Below the pieces are notes generated by a model. That model did not search any database. It saw nothing but the letters and a program-made list of their open reading frames with translations, and had not been told where the DNA came from. Shown in pieces: positions 39,654-64,000 of a DNA stretch of 64,000 nt. The translations under genes were made by a program, and so were the position numbers. This DNA is from an uncultured Gammaproteobacteria bacterium (GTDB lineage: Bacteria; Patescibacteriota; Microgenomatia; UBA8517). The number at the start of each line of letters is the position of its first letter. Position 1 is the stretch's first letter. Where the stretch lies: the NCBI GenBank assembly GCA_964431555.1, contig CAYSJW010000009.1, positions 10,413 through 74,412 on the forward strand, in the 5' to 3' direction.

Positions 39654-40715
39654 ATGGAGATCGTCAAAATAAAACACGCAAAAATTTCTAAAATAGTTGA
39701 TATCTTAAAAAAAGATGGTTTAGTAATCATGCCAACAGAAACCTTGTATGGAGCTATGGTTGATGCAACAAATCAAAAAGCTGTAAATAAATTGATCGTA
39801 TACAAAAACCGTCCATTTGGGAAACCGTTTTCCATAGCGGTTAAAAATCAAAAAATGGCACAAGAATACGTCTATCTAAATAAAACCGCCAAAAATCTTT
39901 ACAAAAAATATCTTCCTGGCCCTTTAACAATTATCTCAAAAAGTAAAGGAAAAGTTGCCAAAGGAATAGAAGCTGAAAATAAAACATTAGGGATAAGAAT
40001 TCCTGACTATAAACTGGTAATTGATGTAGTAAATAAACTCGGTAAACCAGTTACAGCTACTTCAGCAAATGCAAGTTACAAAAAAAGGCCATACAAAATT
40101 TCTGATATTTTAGACAACCTCTCCATAAAGCAAAAAAAATTGATAGATCTAATCATTGATGGAGGAAAACTCCCTTTTAGAGAACCTTCCACAGTTATAG
40201 ATACAACTTGCGATGACCCGGTAATTTTAAGACAAGGCGACATTAAACTAAAAAAAAGTTTTGAAGTCCTAAGTCGATCTGAAGAAGACACTCAAAACAT
40301 AGCCAAAAATTTGTGGCAAAAATACGAAAAGTTTAAAGGCAAAAGAGCTATTATCTTTGCTCTTGAAGGCGAAATGGGTTCAGGTAAAACTCAATTTACC
40401 AAAGGGCTGGCCAAAGCTATCGGAATTGAGGAGGATATTTTGTCCCCTACATTTATTTTAGAAAGTGAATATTCTTCTAAAACCAATAAAATTTCTCTCA
40501 TTCATATAGACACGTGGAGAATGCAAAATCCAGATGAACTTTTAAAAATTGGTTTTGAAAAAAGAATTAATGAAAAAGGCGTAATTTCAATAGAATGGGC
40601 AGAAAGAGTTTCAGATGTTATAAGAGAATTTGATGAACAGGCTATAATACTATGGGTAAAAATAAAATACACAAAAAAATTCAATGAAAGATTAATAAGC
40701 TGGGGGGTAATTTAA
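39654..40715 (+). CDS. Fusion protein: TsaC/Sua5/YrdC (threonylcarbamoyl-AMP synthase) domain + TsaE (YjeE P-loop ATPase) domain
   Basis: N-terminal: PTETLYGAMVDATNQKAVNKLIVYKNRPFGKPFSIAV…GIRIPD (YrdC fold). C-terminal: IIFALEGEMGSGKTQFTKGLAKAIGI…SPTFILESEY…HIDTWRM (TsaE motifs). Confidence 0.7.
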   Translation: MEIVKIKHAKISKIVDILKKDGLVIMPTETLYGAMVDATNQKAVNKLIVYKNRPFGKPFSIAVKNQKMAQEYVYLNKTAKNLYKKYLPGPLTIISKSKGKVAKGIEAENKTLGIRIPDYKLVIDVVNKLGKPVTATSANASYKKRPYKISDILDNLSIKQKKLIDLIIDGGKLPFREPSTVIDTTCDDPVILRQGDIKLKKSFEVLSRSEEDTQNIAKNLWQKYEKFKGKRAIIFALEGEMGSGKTQFTKGLAKAIGIEEDILSPTFILESEYSSKTNKISLIHIDTWRMQNPDELLKIGFEKRINEKGVISIEWAERVSDVIREFDEQAIILWVKIKYTKKFNERLISWGVI

Positions 40716-45587: not shown

Positions 45588-48113
45588 CTACCAAAAAATA
45601 CGGGCTTTCAAATCCCCGCTTGGTAAGGCATTATATCTAAAATCTTTATTCTCAGTCAAGCAATCTTTATTATCAGTTTTAAAATCAACCCCATCAGGCA
45701 AATTCAAAAAAAGATCAACGGGATAATTTTTTACTCCAGATTGTTTACTTAAAAATAATCTATATTCACCTTTCTTTTCAAAATCGATTAATAATCTATT
45801 CTCCCAAATAAAAGATATTTTCCTTAATTCGTTAGGCTTTAACTCTAAATATACACCCGCTTCTTTTGTTTTTTTACCTGCAATAATATCAGGAATTAAA
45901 TACTTTTCTTCATCAACAGATTCTACTTTTACTGAAGAAAAACTTGTTTCATTACCGGCAAAAAATCTCAAGTAAACTTTATAATCTTTCTTTCCTGTAT
46001 TCTTAACATAAAAATCAAATCTACCTTTTAACACTTTCTCCTGAAAATAAATGCTCACTTTAGCCATTCTTGAAACAGAAGACGAAACTTCCCCCTCAGA
46101 TGTTTCTATCAAAGAAAAATAATCCAAGAAGCAATTTGCAATACAATCCTCCTTTAATATTTTTTTTTCTAAATCAGTTTTTAAATGATTGTTTCCTAAT
46201 CCTTGATCACTAAAGTAAATTTGGATATCCTTTTGATTAAATCCTTCATATATTTTTTTGATTATTTTTAAACCCTTATCATTTATCAAAATACCCTTAT
46301 TTACTTTATCCATTTCATTAACTAACTCATTTATAAAATTTTGATTTATAAATAATGTTCCATCAATCTTTGTCTTAAACTCCTTATTTATAAAATTAGA
46401 AACATCTAAGGCAGAATATGATATATCAGGATTCCAGTTAAACTTATCAAGGTTGGTATAACTATCTTTAAAATATTTTTTTACAACCACTGGTTTTTCA
46501 AAACTACCTAAAATTTTATTATTTAATTCATATTTGTCTTCAATTAAGAGACTGGCAATAGAAAAATTATGGAGAATAAGAAAAACAAACTTTTCTATTA
46601 CTCCCCCAGTGGGTCTCAAATACGAGTTATCTTGCAAAACTATTAAATACTTTCTTTCTCCTTCATAACCAAGCAATAAAGTTAAATTTTTTAATATATC
46701 TCCAAATTTATAACTTAAATTTTTTAATTTATTTGTTTCCGAATTGTCAAAAATAACAAATTTTCTTAAAATTTCATTATCTTTATCACTTAGGTATTCC
46801 GCTTCTAAGAAACTAATGTCTTCATATAAATCATTCATATCTATACTTATTGAATTTATATCAGAAAAATTCAATCTTTCTTTATTATTAAAAGATTTAA
46901 CAATTAAAATTAATTTTTCTAAAATACTTAAATATTCTCTATACGCTTCTGATTGAAGTTCTAAAACTAATGTGGGTTTTGTAAAAATATTATAATAATT
47001 ATCTAATAAATATATCTGTTTTAAACCATTTGAAATTTTATTAGAACATTTAGAAAAAAATAGTGACATATTTGTTGAGTATTTAGATAAATAAAAAAAA
47101 TCATTTTCATAAAAAAAATTAGATAAGTGTAAAAACGATAGCGATAATAAACATGATCCTACGGGAAATAAAAATAAAAATATAATAATACCTAAAATTA
47201 ATTTACTGGTTTTATCTAATAAAGTTTCTTTTATTTTATTAAAATAATCTTTAACCTTTGTTACAAACCCATCTTTGTATTTTTTTCTTTTTTCTTTATC
47301 TTTAAGTAATTCTTTATATACTCTATTTAATATTATTTTTGGTCTCTTTTTAATTATGATTTCCTCATCATATTTAAAAATGTTAGTATTTCTATTCTTA
47401 ATATTTAACGATTTTATATCAACACCGATAATTTCCACTAATCTATTCAACTTTATTTTTTTACCTATAATAAATACTGCTTTTCCAAAATAACTTATCG
47501 AAAATAATATTTTTATAATTAATGTAACCAAATCTTCATCCAATAAAGGATAAAAAAACTCATTACACCTTAAATTAATGTTTTTGTTTAGAACTATATT
47601 TTTTAAAACTTCATATAAATCACTTATATAAAAATCCTCGTATTTTGGTGTTATTAAATCACTGTAAAATATTACTGCACCAAATGATTTTAATTCTTGA
47701 AATTTCTTATAAATATAATCCTCATCAATACTTTTTAAATTAAAATTATTTAGTCCATTTATCAAAAATGTGGATTTTGTCTTAAAAATTTTATTTATAT
47801 ATTTATATAAATTGATGTTTTTGTTTAAACTTTTTATAAATTTATTTTTGTTCTCATACTCTTTATCTTTAAATTTATTAAAATAAATTAAATAATTTAT
47901 ATTTGTTTTATTTCTGATTAATTCCTTTATATTTTTTATAATATTAACATCATTGTTAGAATAACTATTCATTAAATCTTTTTTATCATTTTTGGTAATT
48001 AAATAAACCTTTAAGTTATAATTCAAAAGGTTCTTAATTAATAATTTGTTAATACTACTAATATCTGAAAATATTAAAATACTATTTTTCTCAGTAATTT
48101 TACTTTGTAACAT
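45588..48113 (-). CDS. Large Asn/Lys/Ile-rich membrane protein (841 aa); C-terminal part DUF4012-like (RPTGG motif), N-terminal degenerate Rossmann-like region
   Basis: Central TM (LILGIIIFLFLFPVGSCLLSLSFL). C-terminal …LQDNSYLRPTGGVIEKFVFL…. N-terminal ILIFSDISSINKLLIKNL…VYLITKND. Encoded in the most AT-rich tract of the window. Confidence 0.4.
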   Translation of the reverse strand: MLQSKITEKNSILIFSDISSINKLLIKNLLNYNLKVYLITKNDKKDLMNSYSNNDVNIIKNIKELIRNKTNINYLIYFNKFKDKEYENKNKFIKSLNKNINLYKYINKIFKTKSTFLINGLNNFNLKSIDEDYIYKKFQELKSFGAVIFYSDLITPKYEDFYISDLYEVLKNIVLNKNINLRCNEFFYPLLDEDLVTLIIKILFSISYFGKAVFIIGKKIKLNRLVEIIGVDIKSLNIKNRNTNIFKYDEEIIIKKRPKIILNRVYKELLKDKEKRKKYKDGFVTKVKDYFNKIKETLLDKTSKLILGIIIFLFLFPVGSCLLSLSFLHLSNFFYENDFFYLSKYSTNMSLFFSKCSNKISNGLKQIYLLDNYYNIFTKPTLVLELQSEAYREYLSILEKLILIVKSFNNKERLNFSDINSISIDMNDLYEDISFLEAEYLSDKDNEILRKFVIFDNSETNKLKNLSYKFGDILKNLTLLLGYEGERKYLIVLQDNSYLRPTGGVIEKFVFLILHNFSIASLLIEDKYELNNKILGSFEKPVVVKKYFKDSYTNLDKFNWNPDISYSALDVSNFINKEFKTKIDGTLFINQNFINELVNEMDKVNKGILINDKGLKIIKKIYEGFNQKDIQIYFSDQGLGNNHLKTDLEKKILKEDCIANCFLDYFSLIETSEGEVSSSVSRMAKVSIYFQEKVLKGRFDFYVKNTGKKDYKVYLRFFAGNETSFSSVKVESVDEEKYLIPDIIAGKKTKEAGVYLELKPNELRKISFIWENRLLIDFEKKGEYRLFLSKQSGVKNYPVDLFLNLPDGVDFKTDNKDCLTENKDFRYNALPSGDLKARIFW

Positions 48114-50636: not shown

Positions 50637-50750
50637 AAGCTTTTAAATCAACTTACTTATAATACAGAAGAATTTTAAAATTTTCCATACCTTGAAAATA
50701 TCAAAATAACATACATCCTTTTAAATTACCAATTTTGGGGATTGACTTAA

Positions 50751-50759
50751 TGTGGATAA
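50751..50759 (-). promoter_or_regulatory. Perfect DnaA box (TTATCCACA, minus-strand orientation) in the rpmH-dnaA intergenic region / dnaA promoter
   Basis: TGTGGATAA at 50751-50759, ~60 nt upstream of the likely dnaA start (50822). Confidence 0.5.
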
Positions 50760-50821
50760 CTTTTTTATTATGCATTTGCCCTTCAAACAGTTTACTGCCC
50801 TTCAATATTATTGTTGATAGT

Positions 50822-52192
50822 ATGAACGAACTAAATACAAAAAAAATTTGGCATGATGTATTAGAAACAATTAAAATTAATGTTTCACCCGCAAATTTTA
50901 CAACATGGTTTAAACAAACCCACCTAATAAGTTTAAAAAATCAGGATGGAAGGTATATAGCAGAAATTGGTTGTTCTTCTCCTTTTACTAAAAATACAAT
51001 CGAAACCAGATATTTTGGCTTGATTCAAGATAACCTAACAAAATCACTAAACTCCAGTTGTGATCTTATCTTCACAGTAAAATCTAGCTCTGAATATGAA
51101 GGTGATAAAGAAAAAAAACCTACCCCTCTTTTTGAAAACTATCCAGATAAGGAAAATCTTTTTGATAGTTTAATAAGAGCGGGTATAAGAATCGGTTTTA
51201 CTTTTGAAAATTTTGCCGTTTCTTCATCCAACCAAATGGCTTGGGCAGCGGCAGAAGCTGTTACAAAAAATATTGGAAAAGCATATAATCCCTTGTTTAT
51301 TTGGGGAGGGGTCGGAGTCGGAAAAACTCATCTTATGAGCGCCGTGGGACACAGGGCACTGGAACAAGATCCTAATACACCAGTTTTATTTTGCACAGGC
51401 GAACAATTTACAAATGATATTGTTGAGGGTATTAGAAATAAAAACACCCCTGCAGTAAGAAATAAATACAGGAAACTTAAAATTCTTCTTATTGACGATA
51501 TTCAATTTATTGCGGGAAAAGACGCTGTACAAGAAGAATTTTTCCACACCTTTAATGCACTTGTTTTCGCTGGCGCCCAAATAATACTAACTTCAGATAA
51601 ACCTCCATCTGATATTCCAAAACTTGAAGAGAGGTTAAGAAGTCGTTTTGAAGCTGGTTTAATTGTAGATATTGCACCACCTGATTTTGAGCTTAGATGC
51701 GCCATAACCCAGATAAAAGCGCAGGAAAAAAATATACCTTTAGAAATGGATCTTATACATCTAATTGCTGGTAATTTAGAATCTGCAAGAAAAATAGAAG
51801 GATTTTTAACAAAACTCTTGTCTGAAACTACAACCAAAAAAATCAGCCCCACTAAAGAAATTGTCGAAAATCTTTTGGGTAAAAAAGGAGAAAACGATAT
51901 TAAACTTTTAAAAGCAACTCCTAATGATATTCTTTCAGCGGTTTCCAAATACTATTCGCTGGGGAAAAGGTCTCTTTTAGGTAATATAAGAGCAAGATCT
52001 ATTGCGCGACCAAGACAAATTTTAATGTATCTATTAAGAAAGGAGTTGTCTTTACCTTACAAAGAAATTGGAAGATTAATTGGAGGGCGTGACCATACAA
52101 CTGTAATGCACGCTGTGGAAAAAATAACAAATTTAGTTTCAACCTCTATGCAAGTAAGGGAGGATTTAAGGGGGATAAAAAATATGATATGA
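50822..52192 (+). CDS. dnaA: Chromosomal replication initiator DnaA
   Basis: ORF-track ORF begins at 50735. The DnaA N-terminus aligns from MNELNTKKIWHDVLETIK… (ATG 50822). AAA+ Walker A GGVGVGKTHL, Walker B LLIDDIQF, sensor motifs. C-terminal DNA-binding domain (…RDHTTVMHA). Confidence 0.9.
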   Translation: MNELNTKKIWHDVLETIKINVSPANFTTWFKQTHLISLKNQDGRYIAEIGCSSPFTKNTIETRYFGLIQDNLTKSLNSSCDLIFTVKSSSEYEGDKEKKPTPLFENYPDKENLFDSLIRAGIRIGFTFENFAVSSSNQMAWAAAEAVTKNIGKAYNPLFIWGGVGVGKTHLMSAVGHRALEQDPNTPVLFCTGEQFTNDIVEGIRNKNTPAVRNKYRKLKILLIDDIQFIAGKDAVQEEFFHTFNALVFAGAQIILTSDKPPSDIPKLEERLRSRFEAGLIVDIAPPDFELRCAITQIKAQEKNIPLEMDLIHLIAGNLESARKIEGFLTKLLSETTTKKISPTKEIVENLLGKKGENDIKLLKATPNDILSAVSKYYSLGKRSLLGNIRARSIARPRQILMYLLRKELSLPYKEIGRLIGGRDHTTVMHAVEKITNLVSTSMQVREDLRGIKNMI

Positions 52193-52392
52193 GGATAAAA
52201 TTTATAAATTTTTACACTTATCCACAAAAATACTTTTTTCATCCACACATTTTTCTACATTTTAACAAGGCTAATAATCACATTAAGTTTTATCTTCAAT
52301 TAATTTCAGATTTACACATATCTACATTTTCTACTACTAGAACTACTAATTAAAATATGATAAAAATGCACATAACAAATACTTAATCACAT
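52193..52392. other. Candidate oriC: dnaA-dnaN intergenic region with DnaA boxes and an AT-rich unwinding tract
   Basis: Perfect TTATCCACA at 52218-52226. One-mismatch TCATCCACA at 52239-52247. Weaker TGCACATAA-type box. 52250-52390 is strongly AT-rich. Canonical rpmH-rnpA / dnaA-dnaN synteny. Confidence 0.55.
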
Positions 52393-53502
52393 ATGAAAGT
52401 CCAAGTATTACAGGAAAATTTTCTAAAAGCACTTAATATCTGTTCAAGATTTGTTAGTTCAAGAGTACAACTTCCCGTACTTGCCAATATACTTTTAAAA
52501 ACAAATAAAAACAAACTTTCTCTCTCTGCAACAAACTTGGAAAACTCTGTGGTTATAAGCATTGGGGCTAAGGTTATTAAAGAGGGTGAAATAACTATTC
52601 CTTCAAGGATAATTACCGAAACAATTTCCAATTTAGATGTAGGTACAATTGATCTCGAAGTAGAAAAAGAGATATTAAAAATTAAGACAAATAACTTTGA
52701 ATCTAATATTTCAGGTCTTAATTCTTCGGATTTTCCCAGTATTCCATCTGAAATTGGAATAAATAATTTTGAAGTAGAAAGTGACGGTTTTTTGGATGCA
52801 TTAAATTCTGTTTTATTTTCTGTCTCTTCTGATGAGACAAGACCTGTTTTAACTGGGGTCTTATTAATAATAGGAAAAGAACATATAACTTTAGTTGCAA
52901 CAGATGGTTTTCGTTTATCTCAAAAAAAGATAAAAAATAAGGGTATTAAAGAAGAAATTAAATTTATTTTGCCTAAAAGTATTTTATCTGAGCTTGTTAG
53001 GGTAAGTACTTCTGAGAAAATTGTCGTCTCCTACAAAAAAAATGAGAACCAAATTATTTTTGGTCTAGATGATATAATTTTAAGTTCAAGAATAATAGAA
53101 GGGGAATTTCCAGATTTTGAAAGGATAATTCCTAAAAATACAAAATTTAAAGTAAATTTGGATAGGGAGGATTTTTTAAGGTCCGTTAAATTAGCTGGAG
53201 TTTTTGCTAGAGACTCAGCAAATGTTGTTAAATTGAGAATTTTAAAAGATATTGTTCAAGTGTTGGCTGAAAGTAGTCAATCAGGAAGTCAGAAGAGAGA
53301 ATTGGAAGCTAAAATAGAGAAAGACAATTCAGATACTTTTACTATTGCGTTTAATTACAGATTTTTAGAGGACTTTTTAAGTGTGATAAAAGGTGAGGTT
53401 GTGAGAATGGAATTTTCAGATCCCAATGCTCCATCTTTATTTTTAGACGAGAAAGACAGTGATTTTTTACACATAATTATGCCGGTAAGACTTCAGGTAT
53501 AA
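52393..53502 (+). CDS. dnaN: DNA polymerase III beta sliding clamp
   Basis: Three-domain beta-clamp (MKVQVLQENFLKALNICSRFVSS…, …LHIIMPVRLQV). Conserved position after dnaA. Confidence 0.9.
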   Translation: MKVQVLQENFLKALNICSRFVSSRVQLPVLANILLKTNKNKLSLSATNLENSVVISIGAKVIKEGEITIPSRIITETISNLDVGTIDLEVEKEILKIKTNNFESNISGLNSSDFPSIPSEIGINNFEVESDGFLDALNSVLFSVSSDETRPVLTGVLLIIGKEHITLVATDGFRLSQKKIKNKGIKEEIKFILPKSILSELVRVSTSEKIVVSYKKNENQIIFGLDDIILSSRIIEGEFPDFERIIPKNTKFKVNLDREDFLRSVKLAGVFARDSANVVKLRILKDIVQVLAESSQSGSQKRELEAKIEKDNSDTFTIAFNYRFLEDFLSVIKGEVVRMEFSDPNAPSLFLDEKDSDFLHIIMPVRLQV

Positions 53503-53504
53503 AC

Positions 53505-54230
53505 TTAAATAACAAAATATTTAATATTTTTTGTATCTACTCCAATAGCCTCTAGATCGTTCAAAGCTTTATTTAAAATATTTTGTTTTTCTTCTGATGA
53601 AATATTTTGATTATTCAATTTGATTCTAAACGCATTTTGTTCGAAACTATAAACTATAGAATATTCTTCTTTGACGATTGGTAATTTTTTATTCCAGGGA
53701 TACTCTTTATCTGTCTTTTTCTGGGCTTCTCCTACAGTAATGGCGTCTTCAACTAATTGTTTAGTTTGTTGATTGAGTTGGTTAATAGAGAGAGGATTTG
53801 TATAGAAAGAAAAATTATATATAGTTTCTTTGTTATAAAAAACACTTATTGTGTATTTTGTTGAAGTTTTATAAGAAGTTAAATTTTTTATTTTAAGTAG
53901 GGTATTTTTTTCCCATACTTTTTCAAAATCTATTGTGGGATTGAATATTATTTCAATGGAATTTTTTTCGTTATCATTTAAATTTCTGTTAAAAGTAATT
54001 TCTATAATTTGATCATCAAGTACGTATTTTTGATTATTTGAGGGCAAGGTTTTAATTACCTTAATGGTTTGATCGATTATAGTAGGTGTAATATTAATTC
54101 CTTTTTTTGATTCTTCTTTATAGGGTCTTTGTTTTAGGGAGATAAATAAATAAATACCAATAATAAACATAAAAATCCATAAAATTATAAAAAATCTCTT
54201 TCTTTTTAAAATTGATTCAAATATATTCAT
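53505..54230 (-). CDS. Hypothetical membrane-anchored protein (241 aa), last gene of the minus-strand T4SS-like operon; possible VirB8-like bitopic component
   Basis: N-terminal TM (FFIILWIFMFIIGIYLFISL) plus a ~200-aa extracytoplasmic domain. AT-rich like host DNA. VirB8-like assignment is by topology and position only. Confidence 0.35.
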   Translation of the reverse strand: MNIFESILKRKRFFIILWIFMFIIGIYLFISLKQRPYKEESKKGINITPTIIDQTIKVIKTLPSNNQKYVLDDQIIEITFNRNLNDNEKNSIEIIFNPTIDFEKVWEKNTLLKIKNLTSYKTSTKYTISVFYNKETIYNFSFYTNPLSINQLNQQTKQLVEDAITVGEAQKKTDKEYPWNKKLPIVKEEYSIVYSFEQNAFRIKLNNQNISSEEKQNILNKALNDLEAIGVDTKNIKYFVI

Positions 54231-54235
54231 GTATT

Positions 54236-56836
54236 TTATGGTATACCAAAACCCACTACCCTTGCCCAGGAAAGGTTTTCTACCCCGACTCCATCGTTTT
54301 CAAATATTAAGTAACCATCTTTATATCCAGAGTTTGCTTGTACAAAAACTATGGCCTGTTTCTCTATAACATGATGGACAATAGCAACATGATTTGTTCT
54401 TAGTGGCCCACCATATACATAAAAAAATATAATACTTCCGGTAGGTATGTTTTTTGAAGTGGCTTGTGACGCGTCTATAAAACGCCCGTTATTTCTAAAC
54501 CAATTTTCTAGGATATTAGACATATAGTATTCTGGAATTTCATGTCCGGTCTCTTTCCAAGAAATCACTGCCAGTTGTGTACACCAGAAAAGGTTTCTAG
54601 CCTCGTTGGATACTTGATCTCTGGTTGGGTTAGGATTGACTGCGAATAATTCTTCATTGAAAAGTTGAGGATAACTTGGTGGATAATAAATTTCGTCTCT
54701 CGGAAAACCACCCAGTAACTGATTTAATTTTTCTGAATCATCAGGAGATCTGTTCCAGAAACACCAAAATCCCTGATAAAGGTCTGCTGTAATTTCCCAA
54801 GCTCTCTTGGCAATCCCGGTTGCGCCATTATTATCAAAGGAAATAGAACCCTTTTCGTAAGTACATTCGACTGGAAATTGTCCAAACCCTGCAGGAAAAT
54901 CTGCTCTTTCGAAACCACCGAAAGGAACCACAAATGCACTATTGTTAATGATTATTAGAATAAAAATTACCAAAAAAAGAAATGTAATAATACTAATAAT
55001 AACTGGAATACTTATTGTTATTACAATACTTGCAATTACAGCAGATAAAAATGCTGGTATACCAGCTATTACACTTGCAATTGATCTTAAACCCAATGTT
55101 GTTAAAAATATTCCGCCTGAAATAAGTGCAGGAACTACTGAACCTATTGCCAAAAATGCAACCATTGCGATTCCAGAAATTTCTTTAAGTTGCGATTTTA
55201 AATCTTCCTTGCCTGTTATAAACTTAAGTATTCCGCGAAAGATTTTGGTTAAAAACTTTAAAATTTTTGGAAGAATGTCAGTAATTATAGTAATTATAAG
55301 GGCGATGATATTTCCAATAATGGGCACTAAAGTTCCTAAGGCTTGTGCTACTGTTGTAATTCCTGCTTTAGCGGCGATTTTACTTCCTTGTTTGATTAGT
55401 TCTTTGCCGGCCTTTTTTAATGATTCTGTAATGATTTTTTTAGCCGCGTCTTTAGCCACAGATATACCTGTTTTTTCTAAAAGTTTTCCAGCCTTTTCTT
55501 TAACAAAATCAACTCCTTTATCAAAAAGGGGCTTAAGAAATCCATTATCTCCGGTTTGAAGAGAGATCTGGTTGGGTTTTTCTGCAGTTTGCGGAGAATC
55601 GGTGGCGGCAGGCTGTATTGTTATTGATACATTTGGTATTCCTGCTTCTTTCCTGAATGCGTATGCCAATTCGGGATTTGATTTTTGTAAAGTTTTCAGG
55701 ATCCACGCCGAAAGCTGTAAGTCTTTTTCTTGCTGTTGTGTTATTAAATTGTTTTTAGCAACTCGATCGACTTCATTGGAGAATTGTTGAGCGTCAACTC
55801 CCAAAGGTAAAAGGTGTTTTGTTGCAACTTCGGCACTAGCTGATAGTTGTTCCGATGTGGTTCCCGGGGGAATTACCCCTTCGCTTATCAATAACGCTGT
55901 TTCTTCGGGTGTAAAGGAAATTTTACCAGTTCCGTCGATTACTTTTTCCCTGAAATTGATAGTTATCTGGGAAGGTTCGATAGCAGGAATAGTTGGAGTT
56001 GTAGTAATTATAATATTTTGCTGTGTTTCCATAGATTTTGATCTTTTTCTTTGTTTTCTTTCTGCCTTAAGCTGTTTTTCGTCAAGCTCCTCGGCATAAG
56101 CCCTATTTATATTCGACCACCTTTCCTGCCTGATGTTATATTCTTTTATTTCTTCCGGTGTTAATTCATCTTTATCTTTGCCTAGTTGTTGAAGATATCT
56201 TTCAGGGTCATATTTACGCACTTGCACCAAATACGCGGTTCTTAAATCTAGTTGTGTTGCACCGGGGGTTACCCCCAGAAGTTTCCAATTCTCACCGTGA
56301 TTGATCGGCCCGGCTTTTTTGCCTATCCACTTTTTTTGTTTACGGTCGAGCGTGTCTTTCCATTCGTCCTGACGCTTATATCTTAAGTGTTCGTGATAAT
56401 GATCTCTTCTGGTTTCGTCCCCGAGAACCTTGTGGGCTTTTTCTAAATAATAAAGAGTAGTTTTAGCACTTGCGAGACGTTTTTTAATTTCCGATTCGGA
56501 AAGTCCTTGTTCTCTTAGTTTTTTTTCTAAAACATCCGGTTGAAGTGATGCCTTTCTTTTTTTATAAGCTTCTTCGATCTCTTTTTGCGTTGCGTTTTCA
56601 TCTAATCCAAGCAGATCGTAGTAATCAGGCTCTTCGGGAAGTTGTCCGACACTTACAGAGTTGGCCTTACGAAGCCGGGCTTGAAGAACCTCGTATGCCA
56701 ATTCAACGCGCATACCAAGCGGGATTTTGGGATCAATAAGTGCTCCCTCAGAGGTTATTACAAAAGCTCTGGTACACAACTCCTCATAATCAAGATTTTT
56801 AGCCTGTACTAGTAATTTTCTTGCTTCATCACTCAT
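54236..56836 (-). CDS. Multidomain T4SS-associated membrane protein: two degenerate J-domain-like repeats (N-terminal, cytoplasmic) + VirB6/TrbL-like polytopic TM bundle + C-terminal CHAP peptidoglycan hydrolase domain
   Basis: J-like 1: DYYDLLGLDENATQKEIEEAYKKRKASLQPDV…KAHKVLGDETRRDHY (HPD->QPD). J-like 2: NWKLLGVTPGATQLDLRTAYLVQVRKYDPERY. Five or more TM helices (…IIALIITIITDILP…, …ITISIPVIISIITFLFLVIFILII). CHAP motifs NLFWCTQLAV (Cys) and TNHVAIVHHV (His). Confidence 0.6.
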   Translation of the reverse strand: MSDEARKLLVQAKNLDYEELCTRAFVITSEGALIDPKIPLGMRVELAYEVLQARLRKANSVSVGQLPEEPDYYDLLGLDENATQKEIEEAYKKRKASLQPDVLEKKLREQGLSESEIKKRLASAKTTLYYLEKAHKVLGDETRRDHYHEHLRYKRQDEWKDTLDRKQKKWIGKKAGPINHGENWKLLGVTPGATQLDLRTAYLVQVRKYDPERYLQQLGKDKDELTPEEIKEYNIRQERWSNINRAYAEELDEKQLKAERKQRKRSKSMETQQNIIITTTPTIPAIEPSQITINFREKVIDGTGKISFTPEETALLISEGVIPPGTTSEQLSASAEVATKHLLPLGVDAQQFSNEVDRVAKNNLITQQQEKDLQLSAWILKTLQKSNPELAYAFRKEAGIPNVSITIQPAATDSPQTAEKPNQISLQTGDNGFLKPLFDKGVDFVKEKAGKLLEKTGISVAKDAAKKIITESLKKAGKELIKQGSKIAAKAGITTVAQALGTLVPIIGNIIALIITIITDILPKILKFLTKIFRGILKFITGKEDLKSQLKEISGIAMVAFLAIGSVVPALISGGIFLTTLGLRSIASVIAGIPAFLSAVIASIVITISIPVIISIITFLFLVIFILIIINNSAFVVPFGGFERADFPAGFGQFPVECTYEKGSISFDNNGATGIAKRAWEITADLYQGFWCFWNRSPDDSEKLNQLLGGFPRDEIYYPPSYPQLFNEELFAVNPNPTRDQVSNEARNLFWCTQLAVISWKETGHEIPEYYMSNILENWFRNNGRFIDASQATSKNIPTGSIIFFYVYGGPLRTNHVAIVHHVIEKQAIVFVQANSGYKDGYLIFENDGVGVENLSWARVVGFGIP

Positions 56837-56860
56837 TTTTCCTAATTTAATATTACACCA

Positions 56861-58783
56861 TCATTTGTTTTCTTGGATGATTTTCAGCGTTGTTCTTAAT
56901 GGAATATTTGATTGTTCGACCAACTCTTGTGGTTTGGTTGTTATCAATTTATGTTCTTCGGGAGAAGCAACTACAGTTATGGGTGCATGATTATTGCCGG
57001 CAAAAAAAATACCCTCTCCAATGTTTGCTCCAAGTAAAAGCTGTCTTTCACCTTGTGAGAGGTAAAATACATCGCCAACCTTGTCTATAGCGGCAGGAGA
57101 TTGCTTTAGAAGAACCCTTAAAGCACTATTTGTAACAATTGCCTTGCCAATATCTTGGTTTAGAAAATCTTCAACGTCCTGGGTGATTGTAGTGAGTCCT
57201 AGATAATATTTTCTTGCGCGTTTAACAATACTCCACAAAAACTGAGCTGAATCTGAAAACCTCATCATATGCCACGCCTCATCAACAACCAAAAGTCTGG
57301 GTCTAAGATTTTTCTTGATTCTGGTCCAGATAAAATCCAGAATAACAAACATAGCAATTGGTCTTAAGGCATCTTGGAGCTCCCGTACGGAAAAAACAGT
57401 AAAGGGGTTGTTTATTTCAATATTTGTTTGTTTGTCAAAAATTCCCACAAAGCTTCCTCTGACAAATTTTTCAATTCTTGCTGCCAAATCTAATGCGTCA
57501 GGAGTTTCCATTCCGATAAGTATTTTATAAAGATCTTCCATTAAGGGAGGTTCTTTGGTTTGGGTTTCAGGATCTTGAGTAATCCCCTTGGATTTATAGG
57601 TTGCAACTAAAGCCCTGTCAAGAAGAGCCTCTTGTATTGGAGTTATTTGTCCCATGATGACTTTAAAAAGGGAATGTAAAGAAAGAATTTTAAGGCCAAG
57701 GTTGTTTTCACCCTCTTCATAGACTTGGGAAAGATCAAAAGGGTTAATTTTTGATGGAGAGTTGAAAGAAAATGAAATATTTACCCCTCCTACCGCGTTG
57801 GCTAGGTTTTTATACTCACCTTCAGGATCGATTATGATTATTTCTGTCCCAAGCATTAATGATCTTAAACTTTCCAATTTGACAAAGTAGCTTTTACCTG
57901 CGCCTGAAGTTGCAAAAACAGTCATGTTGGAATTTTCCAGTGAGAATCGGTCGAAGATGATAAAGGATCCGTTTTGGGTGTTTATCCCATATAGAACTCC
58001 TTTATCAGCAGATAACTCCGCACTGGTTAGGGGAAAAGTCGTGGCCAAAGATGATGTATCCATATTTCTGGTTATGGAAAGACGATCTAACCCAAAAGGG
58101 GAGGTTGATAAAAGACCATTGTCCATATCTAAGGTGGCGTGTTTAGCTACAACTAAAAGAGAACCAAGCGTTGCCTCAACCTGCTTGGTAATATGGTTTA
58201 ATTGCTCTAGATCAGAAGCTCTGATGGTGATATAAAAACCAAATTCAAAAAAGTGTTCGGCTCCCTTAACAAGTTCTTCTTGGAAAAGTCTTGCATCTTC
58301 AAGTTTAGCCTCGGTTGCAGGATCAACTATTTTTCCTCTTTCAATGTCGGTGGCGATTTCAGCTTCCATTTCGGCAACCTTTCTCATAAGATCATCTAAA
58401 ACGCTTTTACCTTCAACGGGGTATATAAAAAATGAGATATCCAAAGAACTATTGAAGTTGATTATTTGCTCTAACCAGCCTGGAGATACAAAGCGCGGAT
58501 ATCCAGAAACAAAAAGAGTTCTAAGGTATACATTATTGATTTTTAGATAGTCCATTTCAATTTCTACCATTTGTGGTGCTACAACATCGAGTATGTTGAG
58601 ATTTTGAGAATTAACCGCCTCAACGGGATTAATTATTTTCGGTTTGTCGACTATTACTTGTTTAGCCTTATCTGAATTTAAAGCATCTTTCTCTTTGAGA
58701 GTTTTTTCTTTACTTTGGGTAGAATCTTTTGGAAGATTGTTAATTGTTTTTGTTTTTGGTTTAAAAAAATTAAGTTTTAACAT
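56861..58783 (-). CDS. VirB4/TraC/TrbE-family type IV secretion ATPase (main body)
   Basis: Walker A VFATSGAGKSYFVK, Walker B LLVVDEAWHMM, Arg finger/sensor region. N-terminal YLRTLFVSGYPRFVSPGWL typical of Gram-positive VirB4 (PrgJ/TcpF-like). Confidence 0.75.
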   Translation of the reverse strand: MLKLNFFKPKTKTINNLPKDSTQSKEKTLKEKDALNSDKAKQVIVDKPKIINPVEAVNSQNLNILDVVAPQMVEIEMDYLKINNVYLRTLFVSGYPRFVSPGWLEQIINFNSSLDISFFIYPVEGKSVLDDLMRKVAEMEAEIATDIERGKIVDPATEAKLEDARLFQEELVKGAEHFFEFGFYITIRASDLEQLNHITKQVEATLGSLLVVAKHATLDMDNGLLSTSPFGLDRLSITRNMDTSSLATTFPLTSAELSADKGVLYGINTQNGSFIIFDRFSLENSNMTVFATSGAGKSYFVKLESLRSLMLGTEIIIIDPEGEYKNLANAVGGVNISFSFNSPSKINPFDLSQVYEEGENNLGLKILSLHSLFKVIMGQITPIQEALLDRALVATYKSKGITQDPETQTKEPPLMEDLYKILIGMETPDALDLAARIEKFVRGSFVGIFDKQTNIEINNPFTVFSVRELQDALRPIAMFVILDFIWTRIKKNLRPRLLVVDEAWHMMRFSDSAQFLWSIVKRARKYYLGLTTITQDVEDFLNQDIGKAIVTNSALRVLLKQSPAAIDKVGDVFYLSQGERQLLLGANIGEGIFFAGNNHAPITVVASPEEHKLITTKPQELVEQSNIPLRTTLKIIQENK

Positions 58784-58785
58784 AG

Positions 58786-59460
58786 TTAAACATTAAAAAG
58801 TTCCTTCTCCTTTATAGGTGGTTCGGGATTGTATGTTTGATAAAAAAGATTAATAAGTTCATCGTTATTAAGTTGGTGTAGAGATATTCCTAATCGTCCA
58901 GCCTGTCTTATTAGATGGTCTCTTTTGGGAAAGAGTGAAATTTTTGCTTTTCTAACCACGTATGATTTAGGGTAGGGAAGCTTAGGGTTTTTTCCGCCTG
59001 AAGGAAGAAAGGACGAAGATAAAGATTTTGAAATCCCCAATTCATATGGACTAAACGGTATTACAATGTAAAATTTTTTAGATAGTACATTTCTCTTTTT
59101 GATTGCATCCTGTACAAAATTCATGTAGTCATCCATTATGTTTTTAAGCTTTTGGTTTTTTATTTTTTGACTAGCATTGGTTAAGAATTCCATGTAAGTT
59201 GATATATCTTTTTTTTCGCTTCTGACAACTATTTGGACGGGAAAATTAAAAGAGTTTAAAAGACCAGCGTATGAAGCGATAACTGCTTTTTGTTCCCTTT
59301 CATTAAGAAGTCCGAAATTAAGAGAAGTTGATTCCATGATTAAAGCTGCACCTCCATTTTTATAAATAACAATGTTGTCTGTAATATCTGCAATAGGAAT
59401 TAATTCTTGGGTTGATGCTGTTAGTGGTTTGTCGGGTTTAGAGATAAACGGTATGGGCAT
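58786..59460 (-). CDS. VirB4 N-terminal-like domain protein (possible detached N-terminal part of a split VirB4, or adaptor)
   Basis: LIPIADITDNIVIYKNGGAALIMESTSLNF…NEREQKAVIASYAGLLNSFNFPVQIVVRSEK resembles the TrbE/VirB4 N-terminus (LPYA.L.DDGIVL.KDGSLL…E.N.L.RR.NQAL…). Stop TAA is separated from the VirB4 ATG by only 2 nt, in a different frame. Confidence 0.4.
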   Translation of the reverse strand: MPIPFISKPDKPLTASTQELIPIADITDNIVIYKNGGAALIMESTSLNFGLLNEREQKAVIASYAGLLNSFNFPVQIVVRSEKKDISTYMEFLTNASQKIKNQKLKNIMDDYMNFVQDAIKKRNVLSKKFYIVIPFSPYELGISKSLSSSFLPSGGKNPKLPYPKSYVVRKAKISLFPKRDHLIRQAGRLGISLHQLNNDELINLFYQTYNPEPPIKEKELFNV

Positions 59461-59526
59461 GGGAATTAACTGTCGGTTTTAAAAATTAAATTAAAAATTA
59501 AAACTTCCATATTTTTTGTATAAAAT

Positions 59527-60516
59527 CTAATTATTAACCTTTTCCTTTCCGGTAATCACAATTGGTGGTATTATTTTGCCTAAAGCACTGATATTTATTG
59601 GTTCAAATAAAAAGCCCTCTTTTTCTGTAATTATTTGATAATTGCCGTTTACTAAGGGGGTAACTATCATAAAATGACCTAATTTGTTGCTTCTTAATGC
59701 CCTTGCGGGCCTTCCGTTGGAATCACGAATCTCAAGTATGGCGTTTTCGATAATTTTTCCGTTAGTATCTTGTACCTGACCGACAATAATGTTTGGTTTG
59801 GATGGTGGAAGTGGAGGAGCGGCTTCAGAGGAAAATTGGGCTTGTTTAATATCTTTGTAGATACGGCCTTCTGAAGGCGTTAGTTTGAATCCGGTCGAAG
59901 GAACCTTTTCCGCTTTATCTGGAAGAGTTTGTTGAGTTTCCTTTTTTGGTTGGGGCTTTATTTTTATAGCTTCGGTTTTGGGAAATTGAATACCACGTCT
60001 GTCATACGTAATTCCCTTATCGGCTAGATCAACTTTATTGGTTGGGATGTATGCTAATTCTGAAAAGCTATTATTTATATTTTGCAATATTTGGCTTTCC
60101 TGCGTCTCTAATTTTGCTTGTTCATCTGAGGTTTTCATGATGGCAAGCAATTGAGGAGAGGTTTTTTTATTATCCTCTGCTTGTGTACTTGTTTCGGGTT
60201 GGAAGTAGCTGAAATTATCAGGAAGTTTTTTCCAAACATAAAGGGTAGGGGAGTAAATTGCTTTAAAAAAAAGAACAATCCATTTTGCCAAAGGTCTATC
60301 TTCTAAAGGGAAAAAAGCGAGCGCAATTCCCATTACAAAGGAAAAGATGATTAAAGGCCATTTGATATAAGAAGGTAAACCTGAAGAATAAATTAGAAGA
60401 GCAATTAAAGCCCCACCAGCAACCTGAAAAAATTGTTGTAAGGTCATATCACCAACCAGTTTAAACTGGTAAGATGATACCTGTTGTGGAATTGGATGTT
60501 GTTCTTCAATTTCCAT
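59527..60516 (-). CDS. PrgI/VirB3-like two-TM protein with C-terminal carboxypeptidase-regulatory-like (beta-sandwich) domain
   Basis: YQFKLVGDMTLQQFFQVAGGALIALLIY + second TM (PrgI-family pattern). C-terminal IIVGQVQDTNGKIIENAILEIRDSNGRPARALRSNKLGHFMIV…GNYQIITEKEGF. Confidence 0.45.
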   Translation of the reverse strand: MEIEEQHPIPQQVSSYQFKLVGDMTLQQFFQVAGGALIALLIYSSGLPSYIKWPLIIFSFVMGIALAFFPLEDRPLAKWIVLFFKAIYSPTLYVWKKLPDNFSYFQPETSTQAEDNKKTSPQLLAIMKTSDEQAKLETQESQILQNINNSFSELAYIPTNKVDLADKGITYDRRGIQFPKTEAIKIKPQPKKETQQTLPDKAEKVPSTGFKLTPSEGRIYKDIKQAQFSSEAAPPLPPSKPNIIVGQVQDTNGKIIENAILEIRDSNGRPARALRSNKLGHFMIVTPLVNGNYQIITEKEGFLFEPINISALGKIIPPIVITGKEKVNN

Positions 60517-60938
60517 AATTAGAGTATAAGAGCGGGAGAGTATAAGAGTGTAAGTAACACTCTCATTTCCTCATGCTCTTCTGATAAGCATATAATAGTT
60601 TTTTTATCTTCTGATATGACTTTGATAATTTTGACTAATTTAATATTATCAAAATATTGCAGTTTGTAGGATAGGTAATAGATTTAAGGTTTTAAAATAA
60701 AGAAACTGTTCTTTATTAGAAAATTTTTTCGTCATTTTGTGAGTAAGAAAAACCAGCCCAAAAAATTTTGGTAAACTATTAGCTTTTCGCAACCTTGTTT
60801 TAGGTAGGCAGTTTCAAAATTCATGTATTCTCACGCTCTTCCTCTTCTACTTTTACCCGTGGACATGTTATTTCAACCGGTAAACTTTTTCACAAAATTA
60901 TGTATTAAAAACTTAAGGTTGGTGGTAAAATATATGAT

Positions 60939-63422
60939 ATGACAAATTCAGAAAGAGTAGGCGATAGTGGTTCGGGGAGTTCAAGAGGAAAAGAGGGAAG
61001 CAGAAAAAAGGGGGGAAAAGGAACGAAAGAGGGAGAAAAGAATAAAAAAGTTGGTGGTGGGGAAGTTGGGTCGCAAAATAAACCCGAATCTCCAGACCGT
61101 GGTGAATTAGGTGTTCCAGTGACAAGAAAAGAAGATTTAAAAGATCAACCTGATGATTCTACAGAGGCAAGACTGTTAAGAAGAATTTTAGGGGAAACAA
61201 TATCGTTTAGAAAGCAAATGAAAACTCAACTTGAAGAAATTAGATCTACAATCTCTTCGCAAACAACCGCAATAAACCAATTACTTGAGAGGCTTGCTAA
61301 AGCCGCAAGTCCTGCTGATGAACAAGTGTTGATGAAGACGATTGATGCAATGGAGAAAAAGCTTGTAGAAAGCGTTGAGGGATTCAGCAATGTATTAGAT
61401 AAAGTAAACGCCTCAATTAATCAGGAACAGCAAATTTTTGAAGAGAACAGGGAAATGATAGCGCTATTTATGAGGGAACTTGAAAGAATGCAAGAAGCTC
61501 AAGGTATTACGGAAAGTCTTAGGATCCCTTCCCTTGATAGAATGGCAGCGAGGCTAAAAGGAGACTTTAAAGAAGAGTATGAAAAATCTAGAAAAGTAGG
61601 AGATAAAGATTGGACCGTAGAGAATGAAATATATCAGAATATGGTAGAGGATTGGTTTGAGGAACACATCAGAGCTATGGAATCAAGCGAGCTTGCATTT
61701 GAAGAACAACCAGATATGTACAGATACCTTTCGCTTTATGCGAGCAACTTTGCAAAAACTGAAGGGATGAAAGATTTTGGAGAGAGGATTCAGGCAAAAC
61801 TTGAAGCAAGAAGAATACGACATCGCGCAGTGAGAGTTTTGAGCATGTCTCCGCCAGATGCTATTGTTAATGTAATGCAAAATTTTAAAGTACAGGAAAT
61901 GTCGAATTTTTTTAGGGGAGAGGTTGTTGGATCCTATTCCATAGATAAGGCAACCGGAACAAGGGCTAGGGGTACTGATGGCGAAGTTGTTGTAATTAAC
62001 CATGTCGAAAGGGAGCTTAGAAACTACGAGAGGATGATGAGAATATTAAGGGAAAGAAGAGATGAATACAGAAAAAAGTACTTAGAAGAAGAAGAAAGGA
62101 TGAAAAAACGCTTAGGTGTTAGGGTATTGGATTATGGGCAAAGAGTTAAACTGCAAAATAACCCTGAATTAAAGAGGTTGAGTGAAGAAATAAAAGTTAA
62201 GGAAAAATATATTGTAGATTATTACACTTATGGTGGCCACATAGAGGATGAAGGAATTGATGGAGCCTATGTTGATGAAGAAGGCAACCTGCAGGATAGA
62301 TGGAACGAAGAGTTAGGTAGTCAAAGTAATGATAATAGAGATGGGTTTTTTTACAGGCTTGGAACTGATAGACCTCCAGAAAGGCAAGGTAGAAAAATTG
62401 AATCTTATGGGGTAGAAGATTTGGTTAAGAGTCATATAAGAGAAGGGAAGGATCCTGTGTCACGAGATAAAGAAATTGAACTTAGAGATAAATTTTGGGC
62501 AAGAAGGTATGCAGGAGGGACTTTAAGTTTGATGTTTAGAATTAGTCGTGAAGTGCAAATAAACGGGACTGCGGACTTTTATTTAAATAGAATATACAAT
62601 TTTGGAGATAAAGTTGCAGAAAACTTTTTACTAAGGCACACGAGAGAGATATGGGATCCTACAGAGGGTGTATATAAGGGAGATCAGATAAGCCTTGGTT
62701 ATATTGACATAATGTCAGACATGCTTTCAAAAGCGAAAGAAAACCAACTTAAGAGAGTTGGTATCAATAAAAAAAGGGAAGATCATAATGGAGCGTTTTT
62801 AAGTTTTGAAAATTTAGATTGGGGGAGCAAAGAGCTTTGGGATGATTTAATACAGGGAGAGCTTGCTGTTAACCCCGCTACGCCTTCAGTAAAGGGGCAG
62901 TATGTTGCAGAGGCTGACGGATCAGGAAGAAAACCCATGTGGGGTCCTGATAGTTTATTACACGGGCCGACTGTAGAAAAAACAGCAATATTTGAACATA
63001 TGGGAGGCTGGCTTGGTACAGGGCCAGCCGAACCTTTCTGTTTACCTGGTTCAAATGAGCCAATTGAGGTTTCAAAACAGGAAAAATTTCAAATCGAAAT
63101 AATGGATAGAATGCTTAATTATTTGAGATCCGATGAAGCCAAAGATCAGTTGGGTGATCCAATAATAGGCTATTCGGAAAAAGCGACAATTTGTGAATGG
63201 ATTAATTCATGGGTAAGGCACGGAATGATAGATAGTAAAGTAAGTAAAGTATTATTTGAGAAATATTTAGGAACTAGTAACAAAACCCTTCTAAGAATAA
63301 TAAGCACATCAGATATAATTTGGAATGATCTTAAAAATAATTGGGGAACGATGTCTTTGCAGGGAATCGGAGAATTTATAAAAAGATTATTTGGTTATAT
63401 TTTTGCAGATGAGTTCAGATGA
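60939..63422 (+). CDS. Large (827 aa) highly charged soluble protein with Gly/Ser/Lys-rich N-terminus and extensive predicted coiled coils; hypothetical, island-associated
   Basis: ORF track. No TM and no NTP-binding motifs found by eye. Divergent from the T4SS-like operon. Codon composition matches the GC-richer island. Confidence 0.5.
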   Translation: MTNSERVGDSGSGSSRGKEGSRKKGGKGTKEGEKNKKVGGGEVGSQNKPESPDRGELGVPVTRKEDLKDQPDDSTEARLLRRILGETISFRKQMKTQLEEIRSTISSQTTAINQLLERLAKAASPADEQVLMKTIDAMEKKLVESVEGFSNVLDKVNASINQEQQIFEENREMIALFMRELERMQEAQGITESLRIPSLDRMAARLKGDFKEEYEKSRKVGDKDWTVENEIYQNMVEDWFEEHIRAMESSELAFEEQPDMYRYLSLYASNFAKTEGMKDFGERIQAKLEARRIRHRAVRVLSMSPPDAIVNVMQNFKVQEMSNFFRGEVVGSYSIDKATGTRARGTDGEVVVINHVERELRNYERMMRILRERRDEYRKKYLEEEERMKKRLGVRVLDYGQRVKLQNNPELKRLSEEIKVKEKYIVDYYTYGGHIEDEGIDGAYVDEEGNLQDRWNEELGSQSNDNRDGFFYRLGTDRPPERQGRKIESYGVEDLVKSHIREGKDPVSRDKEIELRDKFWARRYAGGTLSLMFRISREVQINGTADFYLNRIYNFGDKVAENFLLRHTREIWDPTEGVYKGDQISLGYIDIMSDMLSKAKENQLKRVGINKKREDHNGAFLSFENLDWGSKELWDDLIQGELAVNPATPSVKGQYVAEADGSGRKPMWGPDSLLHGPTVEKTAIFEHMGGWLGTGPAEPFCLPGSNEPIEVSKQEKFQIEIMDRMLNYLRSDEAKDQLGDPIIGYSEKATICEWINSWVRHGMIDSKVSKVLFEKYLGTSNKTLLRIISTSDIIWNDLKNNWGTMSLQGIGEFIKRLFGYIFADEFR

Positions 63423-63449
63423 GGGAATAAGGTTTTAAAAAGTGTTGTT

Positions 63450-64000
63450 TTATTTTCCTCCAAAGCGCGGTAGTTTTATTCCGGTCATTGCACCTCTTAC
63501 AGCTTCAGTTAGCCTTCCTGCCCTTTCTTTATAATACGCTTCTTTAGCGTAACTTATTGTTTGACCAAACGGCGACCAGAGAGTTCCAGCCGCAGCGCCA
63601 AATGCTGCTCCGATTGCGGTTCCGTAGCCAAAGGGTTTGCCTGCTACTGCGCTTTTAATCATGTCAGCTATTTTTGGAATAAGAGTCATTACTATGACGC
63701 TGGCAATAAGCCAAACAAGATCTAAGTTTTTTCCGAATGGAACGAATGGTGGAAGCCAAGGCGAATTATCTAGTAGATTTGCTTTTGGATCGAAAGGTAT
63801 AGTATTAGAAAATAGATCTGATAGAGGTCCACTAGGTAGTGCTGAAGCTAAAAAGACAAAAGAAATTGCAAGCATGGGACCTATAGTTGCAAAGACAGCT
63901 AGATTGCTGGATATGTTTTTTATCCATTTTACAAAACCTCCGGTAATTATAAATACAGGCCCAGCGATAATTAAAAGGAGTATTGTTATGTAAGTTTTAA
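63450..64000 (-). CDS. Polytopic membrane protein, partial (N-terminus beyond window); possible TrbL/VirB6-like or other T4SS membrane component
   Basis: ORF track gives 63450..63875. The frame stays open upstream to the window end (…YITILLLIIAGPVFIITGGFVKWIKNISSNLAVFATIGP-M…). Gly/Ala-rich C-terminal segment GYGTAIGAAFGAAAGTLW. Confidence 0.4.
   Translation of the reverse strand, partial: KTYITILLLIIAGPVFIITGGFVKWIKNISSNLAVFATIGPMLAISFVFLASALPSGPLSDLFSNTIPFDPKANLLDNSPWLPPFVPFGKNLDLVWLIASVIVMTLIPKIADMIKSAVAGKPFGYGTAIGAAFGAAAGTLWSPFGQTISYAKEAYYKERAGRLTEAVRGAMTGIKLPRFGGK

Follow-up and report, generated by a model that had tools for sequence, protein, structure and literature searches.

Genes beside the replication origin

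We analysed a 64,000-nucleotide stretch of contig CAYSJW010000009.1 (the window), which is Patescibacteria DNA of ~33% GC whose closest relatives are named Woesebacteria or Microgenomates, and looked at a block of genes next to its replication origin that is predicted to encode a type IV secretion system (T4SS). An earlier reading of the sequence (the initial annotation) had described this block as a Gram-positive-type, conjugation-like set of genes inserted right after dnaN, and all of the open reading frames (ORFs) it listed were found again at the same coordinates. The metagenome contig L001, 99.985% identical to the window, extends the sequence by 8 kb; a contig search through the VirB4 protein gave only a 2.5-kb contig. 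Pfam was run on 39 ORFs of the window and 2 of the extension, and the origin and the block comprise the following features.

50735..52192, plus strand: dnaA, the replication initiator (Bac_DnaA 6.8e-60, with Bac_DnaA_C and DnaA_N)
52190..52247, no strand: cluster of DnaA boxes in the dnaA-dnaN spacer, candidate oriC (perfect TTATCCACA at 52218, one-mismatch boxes at 52190 and 52239)
52393..53502, plus strand: dnaN (three DNA_pol3_beta domains)
53505..54230, minus strand: bitopic protein of 241 aa, last gene of the operon, with one N-terminal transmembrane (TM) segment at residues 10-34 and a predicted extracellular Ig-like domain (Big_5 4.4e-4)
54236..56836, minus strand: 866-aa protein with ~490 cytoplasmic residues that include a degenerate J-domain (DnaJ 3.7e-11), then TM segments clustered at residues 493-642, then a CHAP-like wall hydrolase at the C-terminus (CHAP 1.2e-4)
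56861..58783, minus strand: ATPase part of VirB4, 640 aa (NF045971, 376.5 bits against a cutoff of 325; P-loop_TraG 2e-26)
58786..59460, minus strand: N-terminal domain of VirB4 as an ORF of its own, TrsD-like, 224 aa (N-terminal positions of NF045975, 8.3e-12, and of NF045971; TrsD NF041427, 3.1e-5; TraC-like PF26593)
59527..60516, minus strand: PrgI/VirB3-like membrane protein of 329 aa, in which two TM segments are joined to a CarboxypepD_reg-like beta-sandwich at the C-terminus (PrgI 8.6e-5, CarboxypepD_reg 1.6e-5)
60517..60938, no strand: divergent intergenic region between the prgI-like gene and the gene for the 827-aa protein, with probable promoters (promoter-like hexamers at 60622-60658 and 60652-60539, on both strands)
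60939..63422, plus strand: 827-aa soluble, highly charged, all-alpha protein without TM segments, in the slot next to the prgI-like gene
63450..64000, minus strand: 3' part of the gene for a 555-aa polytopic membrane protein, which runs to ~65.1 kb and is complete in L001

The origin region is canonical, with the order yidC, jag, rnpA, dnaA, dnaN, and the cumulative GC-skew minimum at ~50-52 kb agrees with dnaA, dnaN and the DnaA boxes on the position of the origin, just as had been annotated. The core operon runs from 60516 to 53505 and consists of five minus-strand genes set close together; it is on the lagging strand, and replication that starts at the neighbouring origin meets it head-on. 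Its last gene and dnaN are convergent, with 2 nt (53503-53504) between the two stop codons, and a scan for promoters and terminators saw no terminator-like site between them. The same scan, including the hexamers in the intergenic region upstream of the prgI-like gene, gave no enrichment over shuffled sequences. The convergent layout of virB4 and dnaN is also present in related loci. To obtain these, species-representative genomes were scanned with VirB4 peptide patterns and 80 loci were kept; gene order was determined by tblastn and ORF mapping, and the comparisons of dnaN distance and sequence identity used the 62 loci whose sequence continues for 6.5 kb or more downstream of virB4.

The ATPase ORF scores above the cutoff of NF045971, the model for VirB4-like ATPases of the CD1110 family, and together with the P-loop_TraG match, a Walker A motif (SGAGKS at residue 293) and a Walker B motif (LLVVDEAW at residue 497) this confirms the VirB4 ATPase of the initial annotation. 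What had gone undescribed is that VirB4 is split: the TrsD-like ORF lies in a different frame from the ATPase ORF and covers only the N-terminus of the VirB4 models, and such an ORF stands beside the ATPase part in 81/82 loci. The ATPase part is 66-85% identical across the 80 Woesebacteria/Microgenomates species loci, and further close homologues exist in the databases. The first gene of the operon encodes the PrgI-like protein, a member of a family in which all 73 orthologues examined match PrgI at E<0.01 (best 2.3e-8), 70 of the 73 carry the CarboxypepD_reg domain, and the gene lies two genes from the VirB4 ATPase gene in 78/82 loci. Given the two TM segments, the CarboxypepD_reg-like domain and the N-terminus would face the same side of the membrane. 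The family profile gave nothing significant against PDB sequences.

The 866-aa protein had been described as a VirB6-like polytopic protein with a CHAP hydrolase. Its TM cluster and CHAP-like C-terminus bear this out in part, and candidate catalytic residues (Cys752, His816 and Asn834) stand in CHAP order; the ~490 cytoplasmic residues with their DnaJ-like domain had been missed. The label VirB6-like fits the polytopic topology but finds no support in profiles, as both VirB6 candidates by topology, the 866-aa and 555-aa proteins, matched VirB6, TrbL and PrgH no better than E=0.013. A homologue search with the 866-aa protein returned the self-match alone, one with the 141-aa C-terminal fragment of the 555-aa protein returned 2 fragments, and a single-sequence AlphaFold2 (AF2) model of residues 480-866 of the larger protein reached a pLDDT of 47 and was not used for a fold search. 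The J-domain (residues 71-147) has QPD in place of the Hsp70-activating HPD, and a second J-like stretch at about residues 183-215 reads YDPE. DnaJ is matched by only 4/62 orthologues of the 866-aa protein, and at least one orthologue (locus L013) keeps HPD.

The trailing bitopic protein that had been annotated was found as the 241-aa ORF with one TM segment. A bitopic gene stands at this operon-end position in nearly all related loci, and Big_5 is matched by 16/65 of the positional orthologues (best 4.4e-10). VirB8, with its NTF2 fold, was considered for this protein and found no support; the position fits, but the matches are to the Ig-like Big_5 instead. Judged by these profile and motif matches, the block is shown to encode a predicted MPF-FATA-type (Gram-positive-type) T4SS core, in which VirB4, a PrgI/VirB3-like protein and a VirB1-type hydrolase can all be recognised.

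Conservation of the locus and comparison with known systems

The related loci share one gene order: rnpA, dnaA, dnaN, the bitopic gene, the TM and hydrolase gene, the VirB4 ATPase gene, the TrsD-like gene, the prgI-like gene, a gene for a large soluble protein on the opposite strand, the 555-aa gene and then, beyond the window, a gene for a 928-aa protein and pilin genes. The distance from virB4 to dnaN is 1.5-7.4 kb, with a median of 3.3 kb, in 61 of the 62 loci; the one that departs from this is a Blackburnbacteria genome. The composition of the block is ordinary, with GC of 0.33-0.38 and GC3 (GC at third codon positions) of 0.26-0.31 against window means of 0.335 and 0.270, all within one standard deviation of the window genes, and a tetranucleotide distance of z ~ +0.5. 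The flanking genes are housekeeping genes (yidC, jag, rnpA, LeuRS, TsaD, GroEL and MetRS). The test set beforehand for an inserted island was gene order in relatives and compositional difference, and because the order is lineage-wide and the composition normal by all three measures, the island reading fails it. The placement beside oriC and dnaN, which had been called unusual, is the norm of the lineage and has already been published (PMC12102498).

The initial annotation had seen no relaxase, coupling protein or integrase, and the Pfam scan agrees, finding none of the relaxase, VirD4 and integrase families among the 39 window ORFs and 2 extension ORFs covered. A tblastn search with a CD1115-type VirD4 and an FtsK-like type IV coupling protein (T4CP) gave 0 matches in 1.55 Mb (the window and 82 loci); as a control, VirB4 of the same Paenibacillus plasmid matched all 83 sequences. 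The sole tRNA of the window is at 31.5 kb. With mobility genes not found, the suggestion that this is a secretion or uptake apparatus rather than a classical integrative and conjugative element (ICE) is the better reading. Nearly all Woesebacteria carry the block at this site, and it is a lineage-wide core machine, not an insertion. We consider it highly likely that the block is a chromosomal, relaxase-less Patescibacteria T4SS at the lineage-typical dnaA/dnaN position and not a mobile element. The ATPase part of VirB4 was the most conserved of the three proteins compared in 62/62 genomes, with a median identity to the window of 75%, against 61% for DnaA and 50% for DnaN, a result that is favoured because the loci were found and ranked by VirB4.

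The system itself is already known. Quinonero-Coronel et al. 2025 (PMC12102498) described a VirB4 clade of Patescibacteria that is monophyletic and lies inside MPF-FATA; separate TrsD homologues are frequent in it, PrgI is present and there are almost no relaxases. In their survey virB4 lies near dnaA, dnaN and rnpA in Microgenomatia and Paceibacteria, for which they make the gene-dosage suggestion that the initial annotation also made, VirB2-like pilin arrays with an average identity of 25% are abundant in Microgenomatia, VirB6 is scarce, and only 22.6% of VirB3 homologues are virB4-associated in Microgenomatia. Wang et al. 2023 (PMC10633639; summarised in PMC12857230) found the T4SS genes SEML1_0006-0019 and pilins to be essential for the epibiotic growth of Southlakia epibionticum, the one species tested, whose T4SS is without coupling protein and relaxase. 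The block in the window shares with these systems the MPF-FATA VirB4, the separate TrsD-like ORF, PrgI, the lack of any relaxase found, pilins that are ~27% identical and the proximity to dnaA, dnaN and rnpA. Nothing essential differs, and we regard the block as an instance of the published system, its origin position included, and not as a new kind of system. What it adds is a PrgI-family gene that is linked to virB4 and a conserved polytopic family in the place expected of VirB6, which supply candidates for the VirB3 and VirB6 components that the 2025 survey reported as unlinked or scarce in Microgenomatia. We did not find in the published accounts compared the conservation of VirB4 above DnaA and DnaN, the swapped hydrolase heads and the fixed slot for a soluble protein that are described below.

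Among Firmicutes MPF-FATA systems with CD1110-type VirB4, the Paenibacillus brasilensis plasmid NZ_CP045297.1 shares the order PrgI, VirB4, NlpC/P60 or CHAP hydrolase and small membrane protein. It differs in having a CD1115-family VirD4, an FtsK-like protein and MOBP relaxase typing, none of which was found in the window, and in its unsplit VirB4; it is without pilins, whereas the system of the window has them (beyond the window), and VirB4 is ~29-37% identical. Plasmid VirB4 proteins outside Patescibacteria are 29-37% identical to that of the window, the best only 37%; by identity the window VirB4 is closest to Patescibacteria homologues. A separate TrsD-type N-terminal domain is also found in the pGO1 subclass (TrsD/TraD of pGO1/pIP501), and the window VirB4 matches the Mbov_0397 model (4.7e-76) of the Mbov_0395/0397 families of Mycoplasma ICEs. 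The same order as in Woesebacteria occurs on an 897-kb replicon of Pontibacillus sp. ALD_SL1 that is typed as non-mobilizable (NZ_CP062975.1; L084, 347334-367073), where an Mbov_0395-family pilin-like gene, a 779-aa membrane protein, a 116-aa protein, a 274-aa ORF, VirB4 (37% identical) and a 1050-aa M23 hydrolase follow one another. That cluster differs in lying away from the origin, beside flagellar genes, and homology of its membrane partners was not demonstrable (hhalign probabilities of 5% and 29%, the former for a polytopic VirB6 candidate).

Variable parts and components beyond the window

In relatives, the position of the 866-aa protein holds proteins whose cytoplasmic N-terminus varies, whose TM cluster is followed by a conserved motif (consensus ILFIINSGAYVVPP) and whose C-terminal heads belong to different wall hydrolase families. 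Among the 62 orthologues the head matches Peptidase_M23 in 26, CHAP in 5 (in addition to the window), Amidase_2 in 3, NAGPA in 2 and NlpC/P60 in 1. The CHAP-type head is common to the window and loci L021, L027, L031, L037 and L059 and is not that of the nearest VirB4 relatives (L003-L010), and a homologue of the 241-aa bitopic protein of the window was detectable only in four of the five CHAP-head loci. Since the CHAP head and this type of bitopic protein occur together in a scattered subset of species, the pattern suggests that the 3' end of the operon, the hydrolase head and the bitopic gene, may be an exchangeable or differentially retained module.

The large divergent gene and the polytopic membrane gene that follows it were both found as annotated. 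The 827-aa product of the former has no Pfam match, its family profile gave nothing significant against PDB sequences, and an AF2 model (pLDDT 76) gave no fold match. Its relatives are few, only 28 being found when HMMER was run exhaustively against 1.84 billion representative proteins. It fills a slot that is bounded by the 555-aa gene and prgI. In 60/60 loci this slot is taken by an opposite-strand ORF that is 450 aa or longer and has no TM segment, and these slot proteins fall into BLAST groups of 28, 11, 6, 4, 3 and 3 members plus smaller groups and singletons, which neither iteration of hidden Markov models (HMMs) nor hhalign (probabilities <3%) united. We regard the slot protein as a candidate for the cargo, or for a specificity factor, of the system.

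The 555-aa protein has a signal or TM segment, an ectodomain of ~190 aa and then at least six TM segments. It has no Pfam match and no sequence match in the PDB, its family is kept in 60 loci, and its TM module and that of the 866-aa family showed no detectable relationship. By position and topology only, it would be the VirB6 analogue. On L001 it is followed by a Cys-rich protein of 928 aa that has a signal or anchor at its N-terminus, which likewise has no Pfam match and whose family profile found nothing significant among PDB sequences; a lysozyme-like C-terminus, considered because of a motif reading WLxESGASNY, found no support. The PrgI-like, 555-aa and 928-aa families can be aligned in every pair of loci.

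L083, another contig from the sample of L001, shares an exact overlap of 127 bp with the end of that contig. L083 carries an array of seven small pilin genes and one gene for a 417-aa pilin, all on the same strand; seven of the eight pilins score above the gathering score of PF18895 (T4SS_pilin), and their mean pairwise identity is 27%. Pilin genes stand at the same place in 31/80 relatives, within the flank fetched, and the join of L001 and L083 is backed because relatives show the same arrangement. The 417-aa protein (L083, 2934-4187, minus strand), which heads the array, combines a Cys-rich N-terminal ectodomain with a C-terminal T4SS_pilin domain (28.8 bits); with this architecture it may be a tip or adhesin pilin. 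The expectation that missing parts would lie beyond 64 kb is thus borne out for a VirB2-like pilin array and for two proteins, one polytopic and one secreted and Cys-rich, and no relaxase, VirD4 or integrase was found in the extension.

Possible function and other features of the window

The role of the T4SS in Patescibacteria was called "completely unknown" in a 2024 perspective, which mentions effector delivery or uptake (PMC11665869), and a 2026 preprint reports possible T4SS pili at the epibiont-host interface and links them to feeding on host RNA. Conjugation is unlikely here because no relaxase and no nearby coupling protein were found, and we favour protein export or host contact over DNA conjugation and infer that the block encodes a host-contact conduit. 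In such a conduit, by analogy with Gram-positive T4SSs and with the part that VirB4 plays in pilus formation, the split VirB4 ATPase would be held at the membrane by PrgI, the 555-aa polytopic protein would form the channel, perhaps together with the TM module of the 866-aa protein, and the exchangeable hydrolase head would open peptidoglycan, that of its own cell or of the host. VirB4 would power the building of a VirB2-type pilus or conduit in contact with the host of the presumed epibiont, and macromolecules could then cross the epibiont-host interface. Pilins, hydrolase head, bitopic protein and slot protein are the variable parts around a conserved motor of VirB4, PrgI and the 555-aa protein, an arrangement that fits host-specific adaptation. 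Going further, the slot protein, here the product of the 827-aa gene, could be what the Patescibacterial T4SS translocates, a substrate or effector specific to the host; we hold this to be unlikely as things stand, and if true the system would have its first cargo candidate. Together, a motor more conserved than DnaA in the genomes compared, the exchangeable hydrolase heads and the fixed slot offer handles on substrate and host recognition.

It is possible, though rather doubtful, that the same machine works as an importer of host DNA, RNA or other macromolecules, in the manner of archaeal Ced or Helicobacter pylori ComB. Patescibacteria are generally without nucleotide synthesis, in S. epibionticum competence is dispensable and the T4SS essential (PMC11665869), and the preprint's host-RNA feeding would suit uptake. 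Archaeal Ced shares with the window a VirB4-family ATPase without a relaxase, and the window VirB4 has weak similarity to CedB (3.8e-13) and CedD (1.8e-8). However, the Ced scores are far under the cutoffs (for CedB, 48.9 vs 700 bits), the partner genes in the window are of the Gram-positive T4SS type, a nucleic-acid-binding or nuclease component was not found in the locus, and the sequence gives no sign of direction. We think it quite improbable that the main work of the machine is to assemble pili and adhere to the host, with nothing translocated. The large and diversified VirB2-type pilin array with its 417-aa member, the T4CP not found nearby and the statement that VirB4 alone is enough for pilus biogenesis in known systems (PMC12102498) are all in line with adhesion, but the conserved wall hydrolase and polytopic proteins suit a conduit equally, and the conserved slot for a large soluble protein would have no role. 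An ICE or ICE remnant inserted by dnaN, its relaxase, T4CP and integrase lying beyond the window, is hardly credible: although the VirB4 family is annotated as conjugal transfer ATPases and the order PrgI, VirB4, hydrolase, bitopic protein mirrors that of the conjugative-type Paenibacillus plasmid, 61/62 species share site and order, composition gives no signal, integrase, relaxase and T4CP were found neither in the window nor in the 8-kb extension (nor, in 82 loci, a T4CP up to 10 kb from virB4), the closest VirB4 from a plasmid shares only 37% identity, and the 2-nt gap between dnaN and the operon leaves no space for an attachment (att) site.

Several points weigh against the chromosomal T4SS and host-contact conduit that we prefer. 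The PrgI/VirB3-like identification in the initial annotation holds for the family, while the window protein itself scores 23.4 bits, under the gathering score of 27; the CHAP assignment, which has the order of catalytic residues and the other wall hydrolases at the same place in orthologues on its side, likewise comes with a score under the gathering score (22.9 bits against 26). The equivalents of VirB6 are candidates by topology and position only, and for VirB8 only the place of the bitopic protein would fit. The join to L083 is an adjacency in the assembly graph with a 127-bp end overlap only. The T4CP search covered the window and the loci, and many T4CP genes lie far from virB4 (PMC12102498). 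The loci were chosen by VirB4 patterns, so that the set leans to conserved VirB4 and to the window's own clade, and the epibiotic lifestyle of Woesebacteria is assumed, carried over from other Patescibacteria.

Elsewhere in the window, an 841-aa DUF4012 gene (45588-48113, minus strand) stands out as the one outlier in composition among the 64 kb, with a GC of 0.217, a GC3 of 0.17 and a tetranucleotide z of +3.7; its neighbours are the genes for ribosomal protein L25 and an RNase H-like protein. A 353-aa ORF at 39654-40715 (plus strand), directly upstream of tsaD, joins Sua5/YrdC and TsaE domains, two functions of t6A synthesis, in one protein. Among the related loci, L005, L007, L008, L010 and many others come from GTDB representative metagenome-assembled genomes titled "uncultured Gammaproteobacteria bacterium", yet they carry a Woesebacteria-type locus with the same synteny and a VirB4 that is 70-85% identical, and judged by these loci the organism names look like mislabels.

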